Shown: one piece after another, positions 3-41,485 of the stretch
Layout: each line of letters begins with the position of its first letter
How positions within the stretch are numbered: position 1 is the stretch's first letter
From: a virus
Taxonomy: Duplodnaviria; Caudoviricetes
Length of the DNA: 41,485 nucleotides
IMG/VR virus record: IMGVR_UViG_3300005611_000065
Location: 1 to 41,485 of that record
Reading direction: 5' to 3' (one strand)
Position numbers and translations under genes: made by a program
The notes under the pieces: model-generated
The model's input: the letters and a program-made list of their open reading frames with translations, nothing else
Told to the model about the DNA's origin: nothing
The model's database searches: none

Positions 3-194
3 TATGCAAATAAACTAGCGTATTTTTTTGACTTTGTGTTTGCATTAAGGTCGAGGGTAGACGAAGATGGAAAAACTGAGCGTAGATTCCAGACAGGGTT
101 ACACGGTGACTATCTGGCAAAAAGTAGGACGCAAAAGCTTGAATTATTTGAGGACGCTAACTGGACACATATATTTGCAAAAATAAAAGGATAG
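3..194 (+). CDS. C-terminal fragment of AAA_24/Sak4-like ATPase (5'-truncated)
   Basis: Manual translation YANKLAYFFDFVFALRSRVDEDGKTERRFQTGLHGDYLAKSRTQKLELFEDANWTHIFAKIKG*, homologous to the C-terminus of the ORF at 40820-41485. Confidence 0.85.
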   Translation, partial: YANKLAYFFDFVFALRSRVDEDGKTERRFQTGLHGDYLAKSRTQKLELFEDANWTHIFAKIKG

Positions 195-1490: not shown

Positions 1491-2192
1491 ATGGGAAACC
1501 TTGAATTTATAAATAATGATCCGAACGATATCGGGCTTGCGGTCGACGAGCTAATTGCAGCAAGGCAAAAACAGCGCGGTTATATGGGGTTGTCTCAAGT
1601 CGGGATTGTTAACGAGTGTACCAGAAAAGCATGGTTCATCATGAACGGCAAAGAGTGTGAGCCATTTCCTGGAAGGATTTTAAGGCTATTCCGCACTGGT
1701 GACGATACCGAGCTTAATATTGTTACCGACCTGAAGGATATCGGGTTATCGGTTCACAGCGAGCAAAAAGAGGTCACTGCAACTCAAAACAAGTTAAAAC
1801 TGAAAGGACACATTGACGGGATAGTCGAAGGCCTCGGAGTGTTTGGTTTTGGAGACAAACCGCACCTACTGGAAATAAAAAGCTGCAACGATAAGCGATT
1901 CAAAGAATTAAAGAAAACAGGTGACTATTGCGAATGGGGTGGCGCGTCATATAAAGCGCAGGTCCACATTTACGCTACACTGTTAAAAATTGACAGGATA
2001 TTTACGGTTGTTGAAAACAAAAATACAAGTGAGCGCCATTTTTCAAGATTCCACCGCAACCGTGATTTTGCAATAGATACTTTACGCCTAGCCTTTGATA
2101 TAATGTCCATGCAAGCGCCACCAGAGCCACAACTTCCGGCTAATTGGTATTCGTGCAAGTGGTGCGGATATCGCGGAGTGTGTCGATCATGA
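1491..2192 (+). CDS. Cas4-like PD-(D/E)XK exonuclease
   Basis: GHIDGI...LLEIKS nuclease motifs, QVHIY, N-terminal Cys and C-terminal CKWCGYRGVC cluster. Confidence 0.85.
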   Translation: MGNLEFINNDPNDIGLAVDELIAARQKQRGYMGLSQVGIVNECTRKAWFIMNGKECEPFPGRILRLFRTGDDTELNIVTDLKDIGLSVHSEQKEVTATQNKLKLKGHIDGIVEGLGVFGFGDKPHLLEIKSCNDKRFKELKKTGDYCEWGGASYKAQVHIYATLLKIDRIFTVVENKNTSERHFSRFHRNRDFAIDTLRLAFDIMSMQAPPEPQLPANWYSCKWCGYRGVCRS

Positions 2193-3886
2193 TTTTACGA
2201 CCATACCAGGAAAGGGTGGTTGACCAACTGTGGACTGCGCTAATTTCCGGAAAAAATGCACTGCTTCAGGGGCCGTGTGCTTTTGGGAAATCTGTCACAC
2301 TTGCTACAATTGCAGGGAAGATGGATAGAAGCCATAGAGTATTGGTAATAGTTGATCGGCAGATCCTCGTAAAACAGCTTGTAGAAACTTTTAAAATGGT
2401 TGTTCCAGGTCGCACCGTTGGGATAGCATGTAGTGGTGTTCAGCGAAAAGTAGAGCTTGATTGCAACATAACAATAGCAACAAGGCAGACCCTCACAGGT
2501 AGACTGGGAACGTGTGAACCGTTCAACCTTGTAATGATTGACGAAGCACACCTGCTACCTTTAAAACCAGACGGTGAGCCAGCAGACGACCAATACGGGC
2601 AAATAATAGCGCAAATAATAGAATACAACCCGAGAGTACGCCTTCTTGGCTGCACTGCTACGCCATATTCTCTTACCGCTGGTTATATTTATGGGAATAA
2701 ACACCGTGTTGGACTTGTTCCATATTTTGATGAGCTTACCGCAAGCGTTACCGTTGAAGAATTGACCAAAGGCGGTTATTTGTCTCCTGCGGTCGGTCAT
2801 GTTGTTGAAACAGGAGTTGACCTATCGCAAGTTTCGTTGATTGCTGGTGAATATAATTTAGGCGAACTGTCAACGGAAATGGTTAAGCACTGCCAGACCG
2901 TAAACGACGCAATAGAAAAATATTGCGAAGAGCGAAAAAAGATACTCGTTTTTGCAGTTGATATAAAACACTGCGAGAGTATCCAAAAGGCCGTTCCAGG
3001 TTCAATTGTAATTCATAGCGGACTGTCAAAAAAACAACACCAGCGCAACATGGATGCAATAGAAAGCGGACTGGCAGGAGTCGCAATTTCTGTTGCACAG
3101 TTAAGTATCGGTTTTGATGTTCCAGATGTTGACGCGATAATTCTCGCCAGGCCGTCAAAGTCCACAGCACTAATAATGCAGCAGATCGGGAGAGCATTAC
3201 GGATTGCAGATGGTAAAAAAGATGCAATGATAATTGATCTCGTCGGAGCGACTGAACAGCACTTTGTAAAAAACGATCTCGACAAGCCGAAAGTAATAAT
3301 TCCACGACCGCCAAGTGGTGAGGGTGACGCGCCTTTTAAACTCTGCCCAGGGGAGCTTGACGATGGACTGCTTTGCATGGCAGAGGTTCACCCTAAAGTC
3401 ATCATCTGCCCTCATTGCGGGTATAAGTGGGAAACGCTATACGCTGAGTCATTACCTGGGATGAAAGAGGTTGCATTTGACGCAACGCCACCAGATCCAC
3501 CAGAATGGATTGACGTTATCGGGATAGAAGTTGACATCCACAATTCAAAAAAATCAGGAAAGAATCTCCTGAAAGTTAAAATTGAACTCAACTTACCACT
3601 TGATAGGCACCCATATGTCACAGATTGGATTTGTGGCTATGAGTATTCTGGATTTGCTCTCGAAAAAGGCAAAGAGAAATGGGAGCAGTACTCTGATACA
3701 GACATGCCAGAAGACACAACAAGTATGCTGTGGGATGCTTTGGAAAGCTTCTCGACACCTAAACGAGCGTCAGTATCAAGGCCGGGGCGATTTTGGGAGC
3801 TGCATGACCTTGACTTTGGATCAGAGGACAAAGAAGGCTATGAACACCAGCCAATAACTGCAAATAATGAGGAACTTCCATTTTGA
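2189..3886 (+). CDS. SF2 DEAH-type helicase (RadD/YejH-like) with zinc finger
   Basis: LRPYQ, CAFGKS, DEAH, TATP, IGFDVP, QQIGRALR, CP..C/CPHC. Start chosen at the ATG overlapping the upstream TGA. Confidence 0.92.
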   Translation: MILRPYQERVVDQLWTALISGKNALLQGPCAFGKSVTLATIAGKMDRSHRVLVIVDRQILVKQLVETFKMVVPGRTVGIACSGVQRKVELDCNITIATRQTLTGRLGTCEPFNLVMIDEAHLLPLKPDGEPADDQYGQIIAQIIEYNPRVRLLGCTATPYSLTAGYIYGNKHRVGLVPYFDELTASVTVEELTKGGYLSPAVGHVVETGVDLSQVSLIAGEYNLGELSTEMVKHCQTVNDAIEKYCEERKKILVFAVDIKHCESIQKAVPGSIVIHSGLSKKQHQRNMDAIESGLAGVAISVAQLSIGFDVPDVDAIILARPSKSTALIMQQIGRALRIADGKKDAMIIDLVGATEQHFVKNDLDKPKVIIPRPPSGEGDAPFKLCPGELDDGLLCMAEVHPKVIICPHCGYKWETLYAESLPGMKEVAFDATPPDPPEWIDVIGIEVDIHNSKKSGKNLLKVKIELNLPLDRHPYVTDWICGYEYSGFALEKGKEKWEQYSDTDMPEDTTSMLWDALESFSTPKRASVSRPGRFWELHDLDFGSEDKEGYEHQPITANNEELPF

Positions 3887-4245
3887 AAACAGAGCACAAA
3901 GAACAGGCTGAACTATGCAAATTTTTAAGAGCAAACAGAATTTTTCATGCAGCAATACCCAATGCACAGGCGCTTTCCGGTGCAAACAGGGGTGCAGCTG
4001 TCAGGAACATGGCAAAGCTAAAAGCTGAAGGTTTTCAGAAGGGATTCCCAGACATTCTTGTGATCCTGCCTGAAAAACTACTTGTTATAGAGATGAAAAG
4101 AGAAAAAGGCGGCACAGTATCAAAAGAACAAAAGCACTGGTTAGCGGTCTTCAACACAAAAACAGAATACGCGGAAGCTCACGTTTGCAATAGTGCTGAA
4201 GAGGCAATTTCACTGGTAAAATCCAAATATTCCGCACTGGAATAA
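3883..4245 (+). CDS. VRR-NUC domain nuclease
   Basis: EH.EQ, G...GFPDILV....IEMKREKGG.VS.EQK.W. Confidence 0.88.
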   Translation: MKTEHKEQAELCKFLRANRIFHAAIPNAQALSGANRGAAVRNMAKLKAEGFQKGFPDILVILPEKLLVIEMKREKGGTVSKEQKHWLAVFNTKTEYAEAHVCNSAEEAISLVKSKYSALE

Positions 4246-4249
4246 AATA

Positions 4250-4278
4250 TTGACATACCCTTTTCACGGTGGTATTGT
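4250..4278 (+). promoter_or_regulatory. Strong sigma70-like promoter heading the cassette block
   Basis: TTGACA 4250-4255, 17 bp spacer, TATTGT 4273-4278 with an extended TG. Confidence 0.75.
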
Positions 4279-4309
4279 TTGTTTATGAACTTAACTTTTG
4301 GAGGAATAA

Positions 4310-4441
4310 TTGAAGGCACTTGAGTTAGTAACAGGCGTGGCAATATTTGCACATGCCTGTGTAGCGGTTGTAGTTGGGGAGTACTCTTTTGCGCTTGGAT
4401 TGTTTAGTGGCTCTATAGCGTGGTTTTTGCTTGCGGCTTGA
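4310..4441 (+). CDS. Small hydrophobic protein (43 aa)
   Basis: GGAGG RBS and TTG start; MKALELVTGVAIFAHACVAVVVGEYSFALGLFSGSIAWFLLAA. Confidence 0.55.
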   Translation: MKALELVTGVAIFAHACVAVVVGEYSFALGLFSGSIAWFLLAA

Positions 4442-4507
4442 GCAGTACAACGCTAAGTTCAGCGGACTGCGCTTTTGCAGTTCCGCTGTAATGACTGGTT
4501 ATATTGC
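4442..4507 (-). repeat. attC-like recombination site 1
   Basis: + strand reads AAC-GCTAAG-TTCAGCGG ACTGC...GCAGT t CCGCTG t AA-TGACTG-GTT; about 60 bp imperfect palindrome with extrahelical bases. Confidence 0.8.
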
Positions 4508-4526
4508 GGAGTTTAGGAAAACAGAA

Positions 4527-5399
4527 ATGAGAATAGCCTTACACGATCACGAAAACAATGGCTACCCCAACGTAGCCCTGATGAAACTAAGCGCTTGGCA
4601 TAAGGCCAAGGGTGATTCTGTGGAGTGGTTTAACCAGATGTTTGGCAACTACGACCAGGTGTATTCCAGCAAGGTTTTTACCTGGACGAAGCCTGACCCG
4701 TATTTGCCAAAGGATACCGTTATTGGTGGAACTGGCCATGACATTACTGCAACCCTGCCAGAAGAAGTTGAAAGCATGATGCCTGATTATGGTCTTTATG
4801 ATTGTGACAAGTCATACGGATTTCTTACTCGTGGCTGTATTCGTAAATGCCCATGGTGTTTTGTCCCGAAAAAAGAGGGAAGGATCAGGGCGCACCAAGA
4901 CATTGACGATTTTCTCCAGCACAAAGAAGTGGTGTTGATGGATAACAATGTGCTGGCTCATAAACATGGTATTGAGCAGATAGAGAAAATGGCGAAAATG
5001 GGCTTGAAGGTAGATTTTAACCAAGGGCTTGATGCAAGGTTGATCGACAATTCTATGGCGAAACTGTTGGCATCTGTGACGTGGAAACCGTCGATACGGT
5101 TGGCCTGTGATTCTGTAGAAATGATTGAGCCAATCCGCAAGGCGGTTGAGTTGCTGAGGTGGCATAATGCTACGCCTACACGTTTTTTCTGTTATACGCT
5201 GGTGCAGGATATAGCGGATGCGCTGGAACGGGTAAGGTTTCTGAAAGGGATGAATGTTGACCCTTTTTGCCAGCCTTACAGAGACAAGAAAGGAACGCCA
5301 CCAACAGACATTCAGAGAAGGTTTGCAAGGTGGGTAAACCACAAGGCTATTTTTAAAACTACCCCGTGGGAAGAGTACGGGGTAGCAAAAGCAATATAA
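4527..5399 (+). CDS. Radical SAM-type protein with N-terminal cobalamin-binding-like region (cassette-borne)
   Basis: TRGCIRKCPWC is a CxxxCxxC motif; YPNVALMKLS..HK..GD.V, GGTG, DNN, DFNQGLDARL. True start is likely the ATG at 4527, since the upstream extension just translates attC-1. Confidence 0.85.
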   Translation: MRIALHDHENNGYPNVALMKLSAWHKAKGDSVEWFNQMFGNYDQVYSSKVFTWTKPDPYLPKDTVIGGTGHDITATLPEEVESMMPDYGLYDCDKSYGFLTRGCIRKCPWCFVPKKEGRIRAHQDIDDFLQHKEVVLMDNNVLAHKHGIEQIEKMAKMGLKVDFNQGLDARLIDNSMAKLLASVTWKPSIRLACDSVEMIEPIRKAVELLRWHNATPTRFFCYTLVQDIADALERVRFLKGMNVDPFCQPYRDKKGTPPTDIQRRFARWVNHKAIFKTTPWEEYGVAKAI

Positions 5400-5483
5400 C
5401 GCTAAACTAAGCTGCCGCCCTATGAAACTGACCCCGTAGGGCCGCAGACTATCTTGCGGTCAGCTTGAGTGATTTGTTATGCA
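5391..5483 (-). repeat. attC-like recombination site 2
   Basis: + strand reads TAAC-GCTAAA-CTAAGCTG CCGC...GCGG t CAGCTT g AG-TGATTT-GTTA, with extrahelical T and G. Confidence 0.85.
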
Positions 5484-5700
5484 AAATTATCTTTTTAAAG
5501 TTTCTCTAATGGCTGAAAACGCATGGAGCCGATATTGGGGCAAACGAGTACCGCCCCTGTATTTTGTAGGGAGAAATAAGGCAGAAGCGAAAGAGTGGGC
5601 TACCAACAACGTTAAAGAAGGCTTGTCTGTGAGGTCTGTTTCGTGCATGGCTAGGCAGCTTGCCCCCGCTATTTTTACTGGCGACATTAAATCTGCATAA
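5479..5700 (+). CDS. Hypothetical protein (cassette-borne, 73 aa)
   Basis: ATG lies inside GTTATGCA and the stop lies inside the complementary TGCATAAC. Confidence 0.65.
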   Translation: MQNYLFKVSLMAENAWSRYWGKRVPPLYFVGRNKAEAKEWATNNVKEGLSVRSVSCMARQLAPAIFTGDIKSA

Positions 5701-5716
5701 CAGTGTCAATAAGTGG
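5694..5716 (-). other. att half-site (attI/attG-like insertion point or truncated attC)
   Basis: - strand reads CCACTTATTGACACT-GTTATGCA. The core is complementary to the attC-2 end, but there is no second arm. Confidence 0.5.
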
Positions 5717-5743
5717 AAAAACACATCGAACATGGAGCAGACA

Positions 5744-5977
5744 ATGGAAGAGTTGAAAACATCTCCGGTTACTTTAAAGATAGAGCTAAACGTTGACTGT
5801 CCACACTGCGAAGAATGTTTTGACTTGCTTGAAGAGTGTAGCGTTGACGACGAAGCAGATATTTTTGGCATGGCATTGCCGGACGGCATATGGCACACAG
5901 CACATAAAAAGTTTGAGTTTGAGTTTGAGTGTCCAGAGTGTAAGAAAACTTTCTTGGCAAAAACTATTGAGTGGTAA
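5744..5977 (+). CDS. Small zinc-ribbon protein
   Basis: CPHC...CPEC; GGAG RBS before the ATG at 5744. Confidence 0.65.
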   Translation: MEELKTSPVTLKIELNVDCPHCEECFDLLEECSVDDEADIFGMALPDGIWHTAHKKFEFEFECPECKKTFLAKTIEW

Positions 5978-5983
5978 TAAAAC

Positions 5984-6235
5984 ATGAACCCACAATTCAA
6001 AATACACGGCCAAGAGAGGAAGGCGCTAAAGAAACAGGTTGGACTTTTGAGGCGCAGTATTTCTAATTTCTGGCACCACTGGCAGACAAACGACGATATG
6101 TATAACATTTTTGGACATGAAAATCCATGGCCTAAAGAAGAAGCTGAGAAGCACCACGCAATAATCGTTGCAGAGATAGAAGAGAAGGAGAAGTTGCTTG
6201 CTGTTGCGTATGAAAACTTTGATATGCAAATTTAA
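5984..6235 (+). CDS. Hypothetical protein
   Basis: 83-aa ORF tightly packed in the operon. Confidence 0.6.
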   Translation: MNPQFKIHGQERKALKKQVGLLRRSISNFWHHWQTNDDMYNIFGHENPWPKEEAEKHHAIIVAEIEEKEKLLAVAYENFDMQI

Positions 6236-6243
6236 TTATTTAG

Positions 6244-6525
6244 GTGATATCTGTGAAAATGAAAGTTTGGTGGATTCCGCAATTACCTGGAAAAGCGTTT
6301 GAGGTTAACGTTGAAACTGTGCAAGAGGGCGTGAAGATTATGAATACACTAGCTGAATACGATTTATTTCAGTTTGAAAACAATATCAAGCCGGACTACT
6401 GCAACGTCGGGGGAATAAATGTATTCGACCCCACTGACGATACTGACGGCCCTGATGGATCGTGGGTATCATGGTGGGACGAAGAGACAGGAGAAGATGA
6501 CCCGATGGCATTTGTTGAGGCTTAA
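6244..6525 (+). CDS. P22 gp17-like (superinfection-exclusion-related) protein
   Basis: KVWWIPQ.P.K.F.V.V...EG.....LA.YDLFQ.EN.IKPDY.N.GG pattern recalled from the gp17 family. Confidence 0.65.
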   Translation: MISVKMKVWWIPQLPGKAFEVNVETVQEGVKIMNTLAEYDLFQFENNIKPDYCNVGGINVFDPTDDTDGPDGSWVSWWDEETGEDDPMAFVEA

Positions 6526-6580
6526 GCGTAACATTTATATTACATGACATGTGCAATTAATCACGGAAGGAGATTAAAAT

Positions 6581-6877
6581 ATGAACAGTAAACAAAGAAT
6601 AGATAGTGAGCCTGAAAACGGAGATGCACGGGGTCATGGTGCATCGCCTTGTTGTTCTGATATCAAAGAGTATGTGATGCGGCGCAATGAGGCGTTTTTG
6701 TTACTCGACAAAGATAAGATTGTAAAAATGATGAAAGAGCATGAAATCGAAATCCCAGAAAATGAAACTGTTTTCTGGGCTTCAGTACACATAGCAAGAA
6801 CCAAAATGACCGACTTCAGTAAAGATGTGAAGGCTGAGAGTCAGATGTGGCTACGGGAAAATGGCTTTGCTGTATAG
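6581..6877 (+). CDS. Hypothetical protein
   Basis: AGGAG RBS. The N-terminus overlaps a degenerate attC-like hairpin and the stop lies in the attC-3 core. Confidence 0.65.
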   Translation: MNSKQRIDSEPENGDARGHGASPCCSDIKEYVMRRNEAFLLLDKDKIVKMMKEHEIEIPENETVFWASVHIARTKMTDFSKDVKAESQMWLRENGFAV

Positions 6878-6935
6878 CGCAAAGCTAAGTGACAAACGGC
6901 AGTATCGTTTGTCCAGCTTGAGCGTATTGTTATAT
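6872..6935 (-). repeat. attC-like site 3 (core AAC mutated to AGC)
   Basis: TAGC-GCAAA-GCTAAGTG ACAAACG...CGTTTGT c CAGCTT g AG-CGTATT-GTTA; shares CAGCTTGAG with attC-2. Confidence 0.75.
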
Positions 6936-6954: not shown

Positions 6955-7146
6955 ATGAAAGACGACTACAGAAGTGATTATCCCAATGAGCCTATCGGTG
7001 ATGGCAATCAATACTATCGCTGTATATTTTGTAAAATTTCTGATCCACAAATCAACGGCAGACTTGATGGACACTCTACATCTTGCGAGTGGAGAATAAA
7101 AGAGGAAGCAAAACAACACACTAAGCGGAAGAGGAGAGGTATCTAA
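6955..7146 (+). CDS. Small putative zinc-finger protein
   Basis: GGAGG RBS; YYRCIFC...GHSTSC (CxxC..H..C). Confidence 0.65.
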   Translation: MKDDYRSDYPNEPIGDGNQYYRCIFCKISDPQINGRLDGHSTSCEWRIKEEAKQHTKRKRRGI

Positions 7147-27585: not shown

Positions 27586-28148
27586 CCATATGTTTTGATT
27601 TCAAGATCTTCGGCAATCGTTCTCTCTGTTTTGTAGTTAATCAACTGCTTCGGCTTGCCTGTGCAGTTTGTGAAATAGTATTGGTTGTTGTTGTTTATTA
27701 TCAAGCTGTCTTCAATATCTGCCTGAGTAAACGGAAAAGCATGGCCCAAACCATCAGTATAAACCGTTGATCCCTGATCCGCTTCCATTGCCATAACTTC
27801 AGGCGAAACCATTGGCTCACCTGACCAGAAGCCCTCAACATCGGATGAGGATAGAGTGCCGACCACGTTACCGTTTGAGTCGTGGATTGTTGTTCCTTCG
27901 CCTTCGTCAAGCCGAACAAGTGTACCATCACTAAACAGAATATTACGAAGAGTATCAGCGGTTGCCGTTAGTGTCGGATGCGTATAAGATGGTGTAGCTT
28001 CGCCTCCACTGCTTACGATTGTTCCGTGGTCAGCGGTGAAGGTTATTGAATCACTAACCCCATCAAAGGTTCCGACTGGTTTTGCTTCAAAAGTAAAAGT
28101 TGTCTCTGCGTTGTTCCAGGTGTTTGGCGGGTGAAAAATCAAAGCCAT
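27576..28148 (-). CDS. Hypothetical protein sharing a domain with the upstream repeat protein
   Basis: DGVS.S....HGTIVS..G.ATPSY....L...A.T..N..FSDGT.....EG.G occurs in both proteins. Confidence 0.7.
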   Translation of the reverse strand: MALIFHPPNTWNNAETTFTFEAKPVGTFDGVSDSITFTADHGTIVSSGGEATPSYTHPTLTATADTLRNILFSDGTLVRLDEGEGTTIHDSNGNVVGTLSSSDVEGFWSGEPMVSPEVMAMEADQGSTVYTDGLGHAFPFTQADIEDSLIINNNNQYYFTNCTGKPKQLINYKTERTIAEDLEIKTYGCL

Positions 28149-30118
28149 TATTCAGCACCTCCATCAGTGATTATCCAGTTGTTTGGCGCTCCTGTTAGCA
28201 CTGCTCTTGATGCTGCATCCGTGTACTTAGAATTTCCAAAATGAACAGGAACAGAAGGTTGTACTGTTTGCGCCGACCAACTGGCAAGAATTGCATTATA
28301 GCCCGCTGTTGACGTTGTTGAACCTGACAGCATGTTTACTGCTGTTGTGAGAGCATTGACATTAAATGACGATATGCCTATGTCACCAAGCGTTGTCGTT
28401 GAAGACCAACCGTACATCATAGTGTTCATATTTGTAACCTTAGAAGTATCAAAGTTACTAAGGTCAGGTGGCGTTATCATAGAACTCCAACCATACATCA
28501 TACCATCCATATTTGTAACATTAGAAGTATCAAAACTACTAATGTCAGGTGGACTTGTCATTGAAGACCAGCTAGCCATCATAGCACCCATATTTGTAAC
28601 CTTAGAAGTATCAAAGTTACTAAGGTCAGGTGGCGTTGTCATTGAACTCCAGCTACGCATCATAGCTGACATGTTTGTAGCATTAGAAGTATCAAAGTTA
28701 CTAAGGTCAGGTGGATTGGTCATTGAACTCCAACCAGACATCATATAATTCATATTTGTAACCTTAGAAGTATCAAGAGTACTGAGGTCAGGTGGATTGG
28801 TCATCGAAGACCAGCCATACATCATAGTGTTCATATTTGTAACCTTAGAAGTATCAAAGCCACTAAGGTCAGGTGGATTGGTCATAGAAGACCAGTCACG
28901 CATCATAGATGCCATATTTGTAACCTTAGAAGTATCAAAGTTACTAAGGTCAGGTGGATTGGTCATTGAACTCCAGCTACGCATCATAGCATCCATAGTT
29001 GTAACCTTAGAAGTATCAAAGCCACTAAGGTCAGGTGGCGTTGTCATAGAACTCCAACCAGCCATCATAGTGTTCATATTTGTAACATTAGAAGTATCAA
29101 AGTTACTAAGGTCAGGTGGCGTTATCATAGAAGACCAGTCACGCATCATAGTGTTCATATTTGTAACCTTAGAAGTATCAAAGCCACTAAGGTCAGGTGG
29201 CGTTGTCATAGAAGACCAACCGTACATCATATAGGCCGTATTAGTAACATTAGAAGTATCAGTTACCCCAGCAACAAAAGACTCCATGTTACTACATCCG
29301 TAAAATGCGCTAGCTAACTCAAGCCAGCCTACAATACCAAGGTTCTCAACCCTAATAATTTTAAGCTTATCACCAGCATTATTCTGATACCACTTCGTAC
29401 ATTTGCCTGAAATCGATATTCTGTAATCATCAGCAACGGCATATACATGACTTGGACTTGCTGTCGTGACACGCTCAAGGGCACTACCATCGCCCCAATC
29501 AATCCAGAAATCATTAACACCGGTCGCTGGTAGTGTTATTGTTTCAGATGCAGTTGTAGTCCTCCATACTGAAACGAACGGTGCAATATTGCCTGACGGA
29601 TATTTAACTTCTGAGCCTTCAAACTCATACCAGCCAAGAGTTGAGTTAGCAAAATAGGTGTCCTGCCGCTCACTCCACATCCCCACCAGATCACCAGACC
29701 ATGCGATCTGGTGGAGTCCGTCGTCTGAGTAGGAGTAGCCTCCGACACCTTCTGATATTCTGAAGTGAGTACCATCTGAGAATGTTACGTTGTAAAATGT
29801 CCCGGCAGTAAAAGATAGCGTAGAACCGTTGTATGATGGTGTGGCTGTTCCTTCATAAGAAACAATAGTGCCGTGGTTCGTTGCAGTTGCCCCTGATTCC
29901 GAAACCCCATCCAAAGAAATACAATGTCCCTGAGACATAACAAGGTTTTCGGCGTAAGGCTTTGCCCATGAATCAGTTTTTAGCGTGTCTGTGCCGTTGC
30001 CTTTGAACCAGGTTAGGATGTCTTCTGAGTATGGTGGAGTTAATTCTCCACCGAAAATTGGCAAGCCAAACGCTTTCCCGCTAGAAAGAGCCGTGAGCCT
30101 TGAAAATGAAGTGTTCAT
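28148..30118 (-). CDS. BspA/DUF285-like repeat protein with PKD-like domain
   Basis: F.SVW.TT, IDWGDGS, H.YA...Y.I.I.G; 27-aa DTS.VTNM..MM..WSS repeats; C-terminal YN.IL..W...FGNSKY...W.ITDGG cap. Confidence 0.85.
   Translation of the reverse strand: MNTSFSRLTALSSGKAFGLPIFGGELTPPYSEDILTWFKGNGTDTLKTDSWAKPYAENLVMSQGHCISLDGVSESGATATNHGTIVSYEGTATPSYNGSTLSFTAGTFYNVTFSDGTHFRISEGVGGYSYSDDGLHQIAWSGDLVGMWSERQDTYFANSTLGWYEFEGSEVKYPSGNIAPFVSVWRTTTASETITLPATGVNDFWIDWGDGSALERVTTASPSHVYAVADDYRISISGKCTKWYQNNAGDKLKIIRVENLGIVGWLELASAFYGCSNMESFVAGVTDTSNVTNTAYMMYGWSSMTTPPDLSGFDTSKVTNMNTMMRDWSSMITPPDLSNFDTSNVTNMNTMMAGWSSMTTPPDLSGFDTSKVTTMDAMMRSWSSMTNPPDLSNFDTSKVTNMASMMRDWSSMTNPPDLSGFDTSKVTNMNTMMYGWSSMTNPPDLSTLDTSKVTNMNYMMSGWSSMTNPPDLSNFDTSNATNMSAMMRSWSSMTTPPDLSNFDTSKVTNMGAMMASWSSMTSPPDISSFDTSNVTNMDGMMYGWSSMITPPDLSNFDTSKVTNMNTMMYGWSSTTTLGDIGISSFNVNALTTAVNMLSGSTTSTAGYNAILASWSAQTVQPSVPVHFGNSKYTDAASRAVLTGAPNNWIITDGGAE
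28370..29260 (-). repeat. 81-bp coding tandem repeat, 10 full units plus 1 degenerate
   Basis: TAGAAGTATC recurs every 81 bp, with ends from 28450 to 29260. Confidence 0.95.
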
Positions 30119-40446: not shown

Positions 40447-40830
40447 ATGAAACTTGACGAACTCTGCAAGAAGGCCATTCTGCTGAAGCAATCCCTAGAC
40501 GCAACAAAAAGGGAACTCGATTCTGTTAACTTAGAAATTGAGTCTGGCTTCCATGAACAAAACATTGTGGAAGGTGTTTTACACGCCTCCGGTGATCTAT
40601 ACAAGGTCACTGTCACAAAGAAACTGAACAGGTCACTTGACATCGAAGCGTACCAGTCACTCGACCTGCCAGAAAATGCGCAGTTCGTCGACTTCAAACC
40701 GTCAATAAACCTCAAACGAATGAGGGCCGTTGAACAGCTTGAGCCTTCTATAATTGAGGCATGTGTCACCGTAAAACCTGCGAAGTCAACAATCAAAATT
40801 GAAGAGGAAGAGGTCAAAGATGGAAATTAA
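40447..40830 (+). CDS. Conserved phage recombination-module protein
   Basis: AGGAG RBS; coiled-coil then YKVTVTKKLNRSLD...TVKPAK; upstream of the Sak4-like gene. Confidence 0.7.
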   Translation: MKLDELCKKAILLKQSLDATKRELDSVNLEIESGFHEQNIVEGVLHASGDLYKVTVTKKLNRSLDIEAYQSLDLPENAQFVDFKPSINLKRMRAVEQLEPSIIEACVTVKPAKSTIKIEEEEVKDGN

Positions 40831-41485
40831 AAAATTAAGCGAAACCACGCGCGGGGCGGGTACCTTCCTGATATACTCAGGTTCAGGCTCAGGAAAAACT
40901 TACTCACTGTCAACCCTGCCAACGAGCGAAACGCTAATCATAAACATTGAGCATGGACTTCGCACGCTTGATGCAATATGCCCGGATATGGACGTTGCCA
41001 ACATTGAAACCATGCAGGATATGCGAGATGTTGTCAAGTATATTCCAGACTACAAATATATAGCGCTTGATTCTGTGTCAGCGCTTGCGAGTTTATCTCT
41101 TAAAGAAGCAAAGGCAAACACAAAGGACGGGAGACAGGCCTATATGGCTATGGCGGATCAAGTTGAAAATATTGTAAACTACTTTGTCAAACTACCGCAG
41201 GCGGTAATACTCATAGCGCAAGAGGGACGAGTAAACGCTGAAGAGGCTGGACTGTTCGATTATACCTACTGTCCTGAGCTACCCGGTAAAAAATTTGCTG
41301 CGTCGCTTCCGTTCCTTGTTGATTTCGTCTGGGCCTTGCGTGTAAAACAGGCAGAAACAGAAAACGGGAACGTGACAGAGCGAAGATTCCAAACCGGGAT
41401 GGATGGATCAGGCGACTATCTGGCCAAGAGCCGGTCACAGGCTTTTAACATTTTCGAGGAACCAAACTGGAAAAATATCTTTTCC
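40820..41485 (+). CDS. AAA_24/Sak4-like ATPase (3'-truncated, missing from the ORF track)
   Basis: 222 open codons: LIYSGSGSGKT Walker A, IINIEHG, ALDSVS Walker B, DGRQAY, P.LPG, YLAKSR. Confidence 0.9.
   Translation, partial: MEIKKLSETTRGAGTFLIYSGSGSGKTYSLSTLPTSETLIINIEHGLRTLDAICPDMDVANIETMQDMRDVVKYIPDYKYIALDSVSALASLSLKEAKANTKDGRQAYMAMADQVENIVNYFVKLPQAVILIAQEGRVNAEEAGLFDYTYCPELPGKKFAASLPFLVDFVWALRVKQAETENGNVTERRFQTGMDGSGDYLAKSRSQAFNIFEEPNWKNIFS

Follow-up and report, generated by a model that had tools for sequence, protein, structure and literature searches.

The window analyzed here is the whole of the linear viral record IMGVR_UViG_3300005611_000065 (41,485 bases; Duplodnaviria; Caudoviricetes), and its plus strand carries an array of integron attC sites, between positions 4445 and 6935, in which the cassette layout is reversed. 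Each unit begins with the attC hairpin and continues with a gene on the same, bottom strand of the site. We consider these units, with a probability of roughly 0.8, to be back-to-front integron cassettes that are likely moved at the AA|C crossover by the integron integrase IntI, probably that of the host. The reversed-cassette layout is widespread in phage contigs, as judged from the sequences surveyed below. The locus itself is a modest, partly decayed example with two clean cassettes and no integrase.

The polarity of the sites was read from their boxes and unpaired bases. According to Nivina 2016 (PMC5027507), the recombining bottom strand begins at the 5' end with the R' box (RYYYAAC) and leaves bases unpaired at position 16, usually G, and at position 23 or 24 (T). 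Numbering bulges from the R'' end by that convention, we found the bottom-strand layout on the plus strand at all three sites, in agreement with the sequence-only reading of this DNA, which had placed the unpaired bases in the 3' arm of that strand. Site 1 (4445..4504, 60 nt, predicted crossover 4450|4451) has T4489 at position 16 and T4482 at position 23. Site 2 (5394..5482, 89 nt, crossover 5399|5400), whose R'' box contains the next start codon, is a textbook match, with G5467 at 16 and T5460 at 23. Site 3 (6872..6935, 64 nt) is decayed; it has G6920 at 16, deviates at 23 (C6913), reads AG|C in place of AA|C and forms an irregular stem. The conserved AAC of R' and GTT of R'' are present in sites 1 and 2, whereas site 3, with AGC, departs from the RYYYAAC/GTTRRRY consensus. 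Pairing of L' with L'', an unpaired spacer of 5-6 nt and a length within 57-141 nt are common to all three, and their plus strands align with the bottom strands of the tested PH101 sites (Qi 2023, Table S3) and of a class 1 attC site. A strict attC-layout scanner, written after the sites had already been seen, returned exactly sites 1 to 3 from the whole window, all on the plus strand and none on the minus strand; 200 Markov-resampled 3-kb sequences gave a mean of 0.015 hits and a maximum of 1. No Rfam family matched in the array region. With at least two same-strand attC sites within 4 kb (spacings of 949 and 1478 nt) and no intI, the array fits the definition of an attC cluster that lacks an integron integrase (CALIN).

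The plus strands of sites 1, 2 and 3 fold with z-scores of -3.8, -2.2 and -4.4, and their minus strands fold about as well. Polarity was therefore taken from the bulges and not from folding energy. The equal folding, together with the low level of top-strand recombination known for attC sites (PMC5027507), leaves some room for a reading in which the minus strand recombines, the crossover lies at the G|TT end, and the units are ordinary cassettes, with the gene first and its attC after it, whose bulges happen to sit on the unusual arm. We regard this as extremely unlikely, since the hairpin is shared with the downstream and not the upstream gene, and related loci diverge at AA|C, as described below.

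Two cassettes in the window are cleanly bounded, each ending in TAA|C. Cassette A (4451..5399, plus strand) consists of the site 1 hairpin and a gene for a 290-aa radical SAM-domain protein (4527..5399; phrog_9298, E 1.6e-86), whose TAA stop lies on the site 2 crossover. Its R'' box, GTTATAT, pairs without mismatch with ATATAAC, the R' box that ends the unit. Cassette B (5400..5700, plus strand) consists of the site 2 hairpin and a 73-aa open reading frame (ORF) of unassigned function (5479..5700), with its ATG inside R'' and its TAA on the terminal crossover 5700|5701; here R'' is GTTATGC, the exact complement of GCATAAC at 5695-5701. Complementarity is thus 7/7 across the gene in both cassettes, against 5/7 within each site. 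The box closing cassette B belongs to a terminal half-site (5695..5712, plus strand), an R' box without a hairpin, which was recognized by position and complementarity and is likely either an attI-like entry site or a truncated attC.

All eight ORFs called by a codon-model caller between 4310 and 7146 lie on the plus strand, that is, on the attC bottom strand as the sequence-only reading had stated, and none of the nine minus-strand ORFs of the region has a PHROG match. Other details of that reading held in part. The stop codon falls on AA|C at site 2 and at the half-site, which had not been listed, but at site 1 it lies 9 nt upstream, and at site 3 it reads TAG|C. A promoter at the distal end is represented by a predicted sigma-70 promoter with an extended TG upstream of the array (TTGACA-17-TATTGT, 4250..4278, plus strand), a consensus match at 10 of 12 positions plus TG, of which the region holds 11 against 7.8 expected. 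The array of cassettes comes down to the two cleanly bounded units. Four genes (81, 83, 93 and 98 aa; 5732..6877, plus strand) are not bounded by full attC sites, none separating them within 5701-6877.

We then asked how gene strand relates to attC polarity elsewhere. The same motif served to scan two collections, one of viral contigs (128 loci of about 180) and one of bacterial genomes (158 loci, from 3/64 parts of the collection and rich in Xanthomonadales). Duplicates and sites with less than 250 nt of flank were dropped, and the remaining sites are not independent. Gene strand was assigned by the codon-model caller, which replaced a longest-ORF caller that gave mixed strands owing to long antisense frames in GC-rich loci. 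The gene downstream of the viral sites lay on the bottom strand in 99/115 cases (9 top, 7 uncalled), compared with 19/253 bacterial sites (220 top, 14 uncalled); counted by locus, bottom-strand genes made up 91/99 viral and 10/122 bacterial cases. A second motif, used on viral contigs only, gave 87 bottom-strand, 24 top-strand and 7 uncalled genes at 118 sites. A caller-independent check took the best ORF per strand at 73 sites in loci L001-L080 and found PHROG matches for 28/70 on the bottom strand, one of them (L024) a portal gene that overlaps a spurious motif match, and for 1/70 on the top strand (QacE), a comparison in which top-strand bacterial cassettes are undercounted because PHROGs favours phage genes. 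The proposal of a phage-associated reversed class is therefore well supported by these counts, as it is by the exchange points and gene pools described below. Published phage CALINs (NC_029094, 75536-77987; MW202573, 2069-3738; NC_019930, 77-1519) differ in polarity: annotated genes lie on the bottom strand in PH101 and MW202573, and TJE1 is canonical. The polarity of the P12002L sites was unreadable with the scanner, and they were left out.

The point of exchange was examined through box matches and flanking sequence. Among 55 single-gene viral units, R'' exactly matched the R' of the next site in 52 and that of its own site in 15, and bacterial units behave alike (132/148 versus 61/148). Among 364 viral sites, 54 pairs share the right flank only, with a median hairpin identity of 0.73; 9 pairs share the left flank only, with a hairpin identity of 0.58, equal to the background of 0.58; and no pair shares both. 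This flank test was used in place of a unit-level comparison of shared genes, for which there were too few viral pairs. Pairs such as L071/L417, L338/L390 and L009/L117 are identical rightward from AA|C and show no similarity once a few bases to its left are passed, and L086/L338 is identical up to AA|C and differs within a few bases beyond it; among the pairs inspected, divergence falls at or just beside AA|C. Some pairs that share the right flank have unlike hairpins (L314/L391), suggesting that hairpins are sometimes replaced. Given the box matches and the flank divergence, the cut appears to lie where bottom-strand IntI recombination puts it, and ordinary bottom-strand IntI chemistry in which only the gene is flipped is the likely explanation.

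The stop codon sits exactly on AA|C in 47 of the 99 viral cases, which would also be expected if the hairpins were gene-less attC elements or RNA signals placed at TAA-C stops between ordinary phage genes. In addition, each of the three cassette genes in the window has homologs in phages or contigs that carry no attC: 14 other radical SAM homologs showed no such site, a homolog of the 73-aa ORF (44% identical, from residue 1) lies in another phage without attC, and a homolog of the 63-aa ORF that follows site 3 shows no attC in front (L477). The mirror position, with the stop in R'', is taken in 80/220 bacterial cases. A stop in TAAC is thus common in both pools and need not mean that the stop was the target. 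Boxes complementary across the gene, and identical hairpin-plus-gene units behind unrelated left neighbours, largely refute this explanation, and we hold it to be very unlikely.

Several observations weigh against the reading of the units as reversed cassettes moved by IntI, in addition to the bias of the PHROG check. Some phage arrays are canonical (TJE1 and several contigs). PH101 is not clean, short opposite-strand ORFs being called in two of its intervals. For 222 viral sites the downstream gene is complete; a full site that matches comes next at 125 of them and a half-site at 36, some of these half-sites being full sites missed by the scanner, and 61 have no exactly complementary box after the gene. 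No relative of the phage with a different array was found, the helicase search returning one 33% match. No tyrosine recombinase (PF00589, E<=10) was detected in the record, which is 61% complete by CheckV, and PF00589 is absent from 36/48 other viral records, including 7/10 near-complete ones. The half-site at 5695-5712 is without the commoner TAG motif described below. Finally, none of the canonical bacterial arrays among the surveyed loci was found to contain a cassette of the phage type.

The scarcity of integrase genes raises the question of which enzyme acts on the sites. IntI above the TIGR02249 cut-off is phage-borne in 2/48 records and in 2/50 more (50 searched of 69), and a small Xer-type or other phage enzyme could be held responsible, given IntI in only 4/98 records searched. 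We consider such an enzyme improbable: the bulges at 16 and 23, which are specific to IntI, are preserved in the sites, some viral sites are near-identical to class 1 attC sites, seven of the ten near-complete records are without any PF00589 match, and the enzyme adjoining the terminal site in four records is IntI. In these four records (L296 in G020, L295 in G029, L475 in G076 and L476 in G088), intI starts shortly after the AA|C half-site that closes the last unit, on the bottom strand. The attI-intI geometry is the usual one, now in line with the cargo genes, although the gene strand of the last unit in G076 is ambiguous. The four are candidate complete phage integrons. In G029, a terminase-like gene follows intI. 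An IntI match in G040 was rejected as phage-borne, as it belongs to a class 1 integron in a bacterial-looking contig.

The half-sites share a further feature. TAG occurs at +7/+8 after AAC in 16/36 of them, compared with 45/1200 background TAAC occurrences, and half-sites with this second box, often TAGAC, include those of L001, L007, L023, L070, L072, L080, L314, L315, L320 and L327. The TAG box at +7/+8 is a candidate phage attI consensus. Because it lacks the TAG motif, the window half-site is attI-like by position alone.

Reversed cassettes of phages and canonical cassettes of bacteria appear as separate gene pools. The viral set comprised 321 proteins from bottom-strand cassettes. Of these, 95 match another member of the set and 20 match bottom-strand proteins of bacterial genomes, and none of the 321 matches any of 238 canonical bacterial cassette proteins. 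Bacterial loci with strong strand calls comprise 63 all-top, 6 all-bottom and 3 mixed loci. On inspection, the reversed arrays of Rhodanobacter caeni (L161, a cultured strain), a Roseateles metagenome-assembled genome (MAG; L182) and a Propionivibrio MAG (L209) lie in prophage-like regions. The sequence-only reading had further proposed that a phage cassette parked in a host integron would be antisense to the integron promoter Pc, and had suggested looking for homologous cassettes in chromosomal integrons. The antisense placement follows from the geometry, but the search of the surveyed loci yielded no parked example, which leaves the parking idea a geometric argument. Traffic in the opposite direction was seen instead: two reversed phage arrays each hold one top-strand cassette with exactly complementary boxes, lying antisense (L395:821-1495 and L019:1110-1487). 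The genes of these two cassettes have no Pfam match.

Taken with the site anatomy, a mechanism can be proposed for the reversed cassettes. Most likely, IntI would act in trans, coming either from the host or from another phage in the same cell, and hairpin-plus-gene units would be excised and inserted via the folded bottom strand, which is the plus strand here. New cassettes would enter mostly at the promoter-distal attI-like site, in this window 5695-5712, and the promoter at 4250 would read through the array toward that site, making the genes part of one phage operon. Since only the gene is flipped, the consequence would be reciprocal: in a host integron a phage cassette would run antisense to Pc, and in the phage operon the same would hold for a host cassette. 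The reversal may have been favored because array and intI then stay within a single operon and captured host cassettes would lie antisense. A more far-reaching version, which we put forward tentatively and hold to be somewhat doubtful, is a mirror-image phage integron system, in which cassettes, an attI-like site and an intI carried by a few helper phages form one operon, phage genes have become cassettes again and again because TAA-C stops serve as ready-made crossovers, and polarity acts as a firewall. If the firewall were true, phages and hosts would share integrases, while the cassettes of each, including host anti-phage ones, would land antisense and silent in the other. Anti-phage systems have been reported from host integrons (bioRxiv 2024.07.02.601686 and 601719). 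Folding of attC is favoured on the lagging-strand template (PMC8946536). GC skew was tried as an indicator of the replication strand in the window and dropped; it tracks the direction of transcription and is therefore uninformative on this point.

Whether the array is still in use is a separate matter. It may be a fossil, with cassettes gained earlier and sites that no longer recombine in the present host, a view compatible with reversed cassettes as to origin. The record contains no integrase, the four genes after cassette B are without attC sites, and site 3 has lost AAC. The 63-aa ORF after site 3 (6955..7146, plus strand) ends in a sequence that matches the expected box at only 5/7 positions, and site 3 with this gene is likely a decayed older cassette insertion. 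Two metagenome contigs come from the same phage and show the same arrangement (99.7% identity over 4110-6088 and 99.97% over 2027-5534), so that three assemblies agree over the stretches covered. These matches show that assembly error does not account for sites 1 and 2; site 3 is outside their cover. On the other hand, the anatomy of sites 1 and 2 is intact and their boxes are still perfectly complementary, features that would drift in sites long unused, and we consider the fossil state rather unlikely. A second half-site candidate at 6526-6532 has no partner box, may be due to chance and was not counted.

The radical SAM gene provides a view of cassettes across phages. Two further loci (L287 and L290) carry it in this reversed layout, again with exactly complementary boxes, and a similar hairpin is present in a partial one (L465). 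A tree of 18 rows, one of them half-length, was poorly resolved; a single clade for the four cassette-borne copies was weakly rejected (p-AU 0.029, approximately unbiased test), and the clustering of cassette labels was no better than in shuffles. The tree is suggestive only of repeated gain or loss of the cassette state.

The remaining features of the region and record are as follows. The array region directly follows genes for a helicase and a VRR-NUC nuclease, and site 1 is preceded by a 43-aa hydrophobic ORF (4310..4441, plus strand) that has no Pfam or PHROG match and is not a cassette. Two genes of the region have family matches, namely the radical SAM gene and the 93-aa gene (6244-6525), which is P22 gp17-like (PF17420, E 8.8e-29; PHROG category superinfection exclusion); two more have homologs in other phages. 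Family searches identified terminase, lysozyme, primase and helicase genes in the record. Terminase homologs (62-71%) indicate no single host, and a radical SAM homolog at 70% identity carries a name from Desulfomarina. Both ends of the window (3-194 and 40799-41485) carry the C-terminal portion of a gene for an AAA_24 ATPase, and the two copies have diverged (67% over 110 nt), possibly reflecting a strain mosaic or a near-complete circle. Between the portal and head genes, 28148-30118 on the minus strand encodes a protein of 656 aa in which DUF285 repeats (PF03382, E 3.7e-73) follow one another in large number.

Arrays of attC in phages have already been published. Qi 2023 (PMC9892861) reported CALINs in phage genomes and showed that PH101 sites are recombined by IntI1 with attI1, the bottom strand better than the top. 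The present array resembles these in having attC sites in a phage without intI, as does the wider set in its methyltransferase-rich cargo; gene strand relative to attC polarity is not discussed in the portion of that text covered. Since the annotated genes of PH101 lie on the better-recombining bottom strand, PH101 amounts to a partial, unintended test of the reversed layout. With classical cassettes (Nivina 2016, PMC5027507) the units share the R', L', L'' and R'' boxes, the bulges at 16 and 23, the AA|C crossover and box complementarity. They differ in having the gene on the bottom strand, the hairpin before the gene, the stop at R' and the start near or in R'', and, unlike in classical integrons, the promoter is far from the entry site. 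In Treponema integrons (PMC3607928, PMC4889954), the integrase is described as flipped relative to attC and pointing toward attI, whereas the four phage integrons keep the usual place and strand of intI, pointing away from the array, and have flipped cargo genes. IntI also inserts cassettes at short GWT sites, known as attG, giving single attC sites lacking integron integrase (SALINs; Loot et al., bioRxiv 10.1101/2022.09.11.507474). A gene that ends in TAA-C likewise reads GTT on the other strand; however, SALINs are canonical cassettes in bacterial chromosomes, and the phage terminal sites, with their frequent second box, are more attI-like. No description of a reversed-polarity phage cassette pool was found in a literature search that covered subscription journals only in small part and included the available text of PMC4889954, PMC3607928, PMC8946536, PMC13323075, PMC8876359, PMC8618304 and 2022.09.11.507474. 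What is new here is the reversed gene polarity, as a variant of integron cassettes.

In the integron model, correct expression of a gene is coupled to recombination of the bottom strand. A natural pool of large size with the opposite polarity would mean that this expression rule belongs to the bacterial pool and not to the chemistry. Software that looks for the cassette gene on the top strand, upstream of attC, would assign the wrong ORF to reversed cassettes. As members of one gene family are seen in cassettes as well as among plain phage genes, the phage pool offers a handle on how cassettes first arise. For phages, reversed cassettes would represent an overlooked and precise route of gene swapping for methyltransferases and other small genes.

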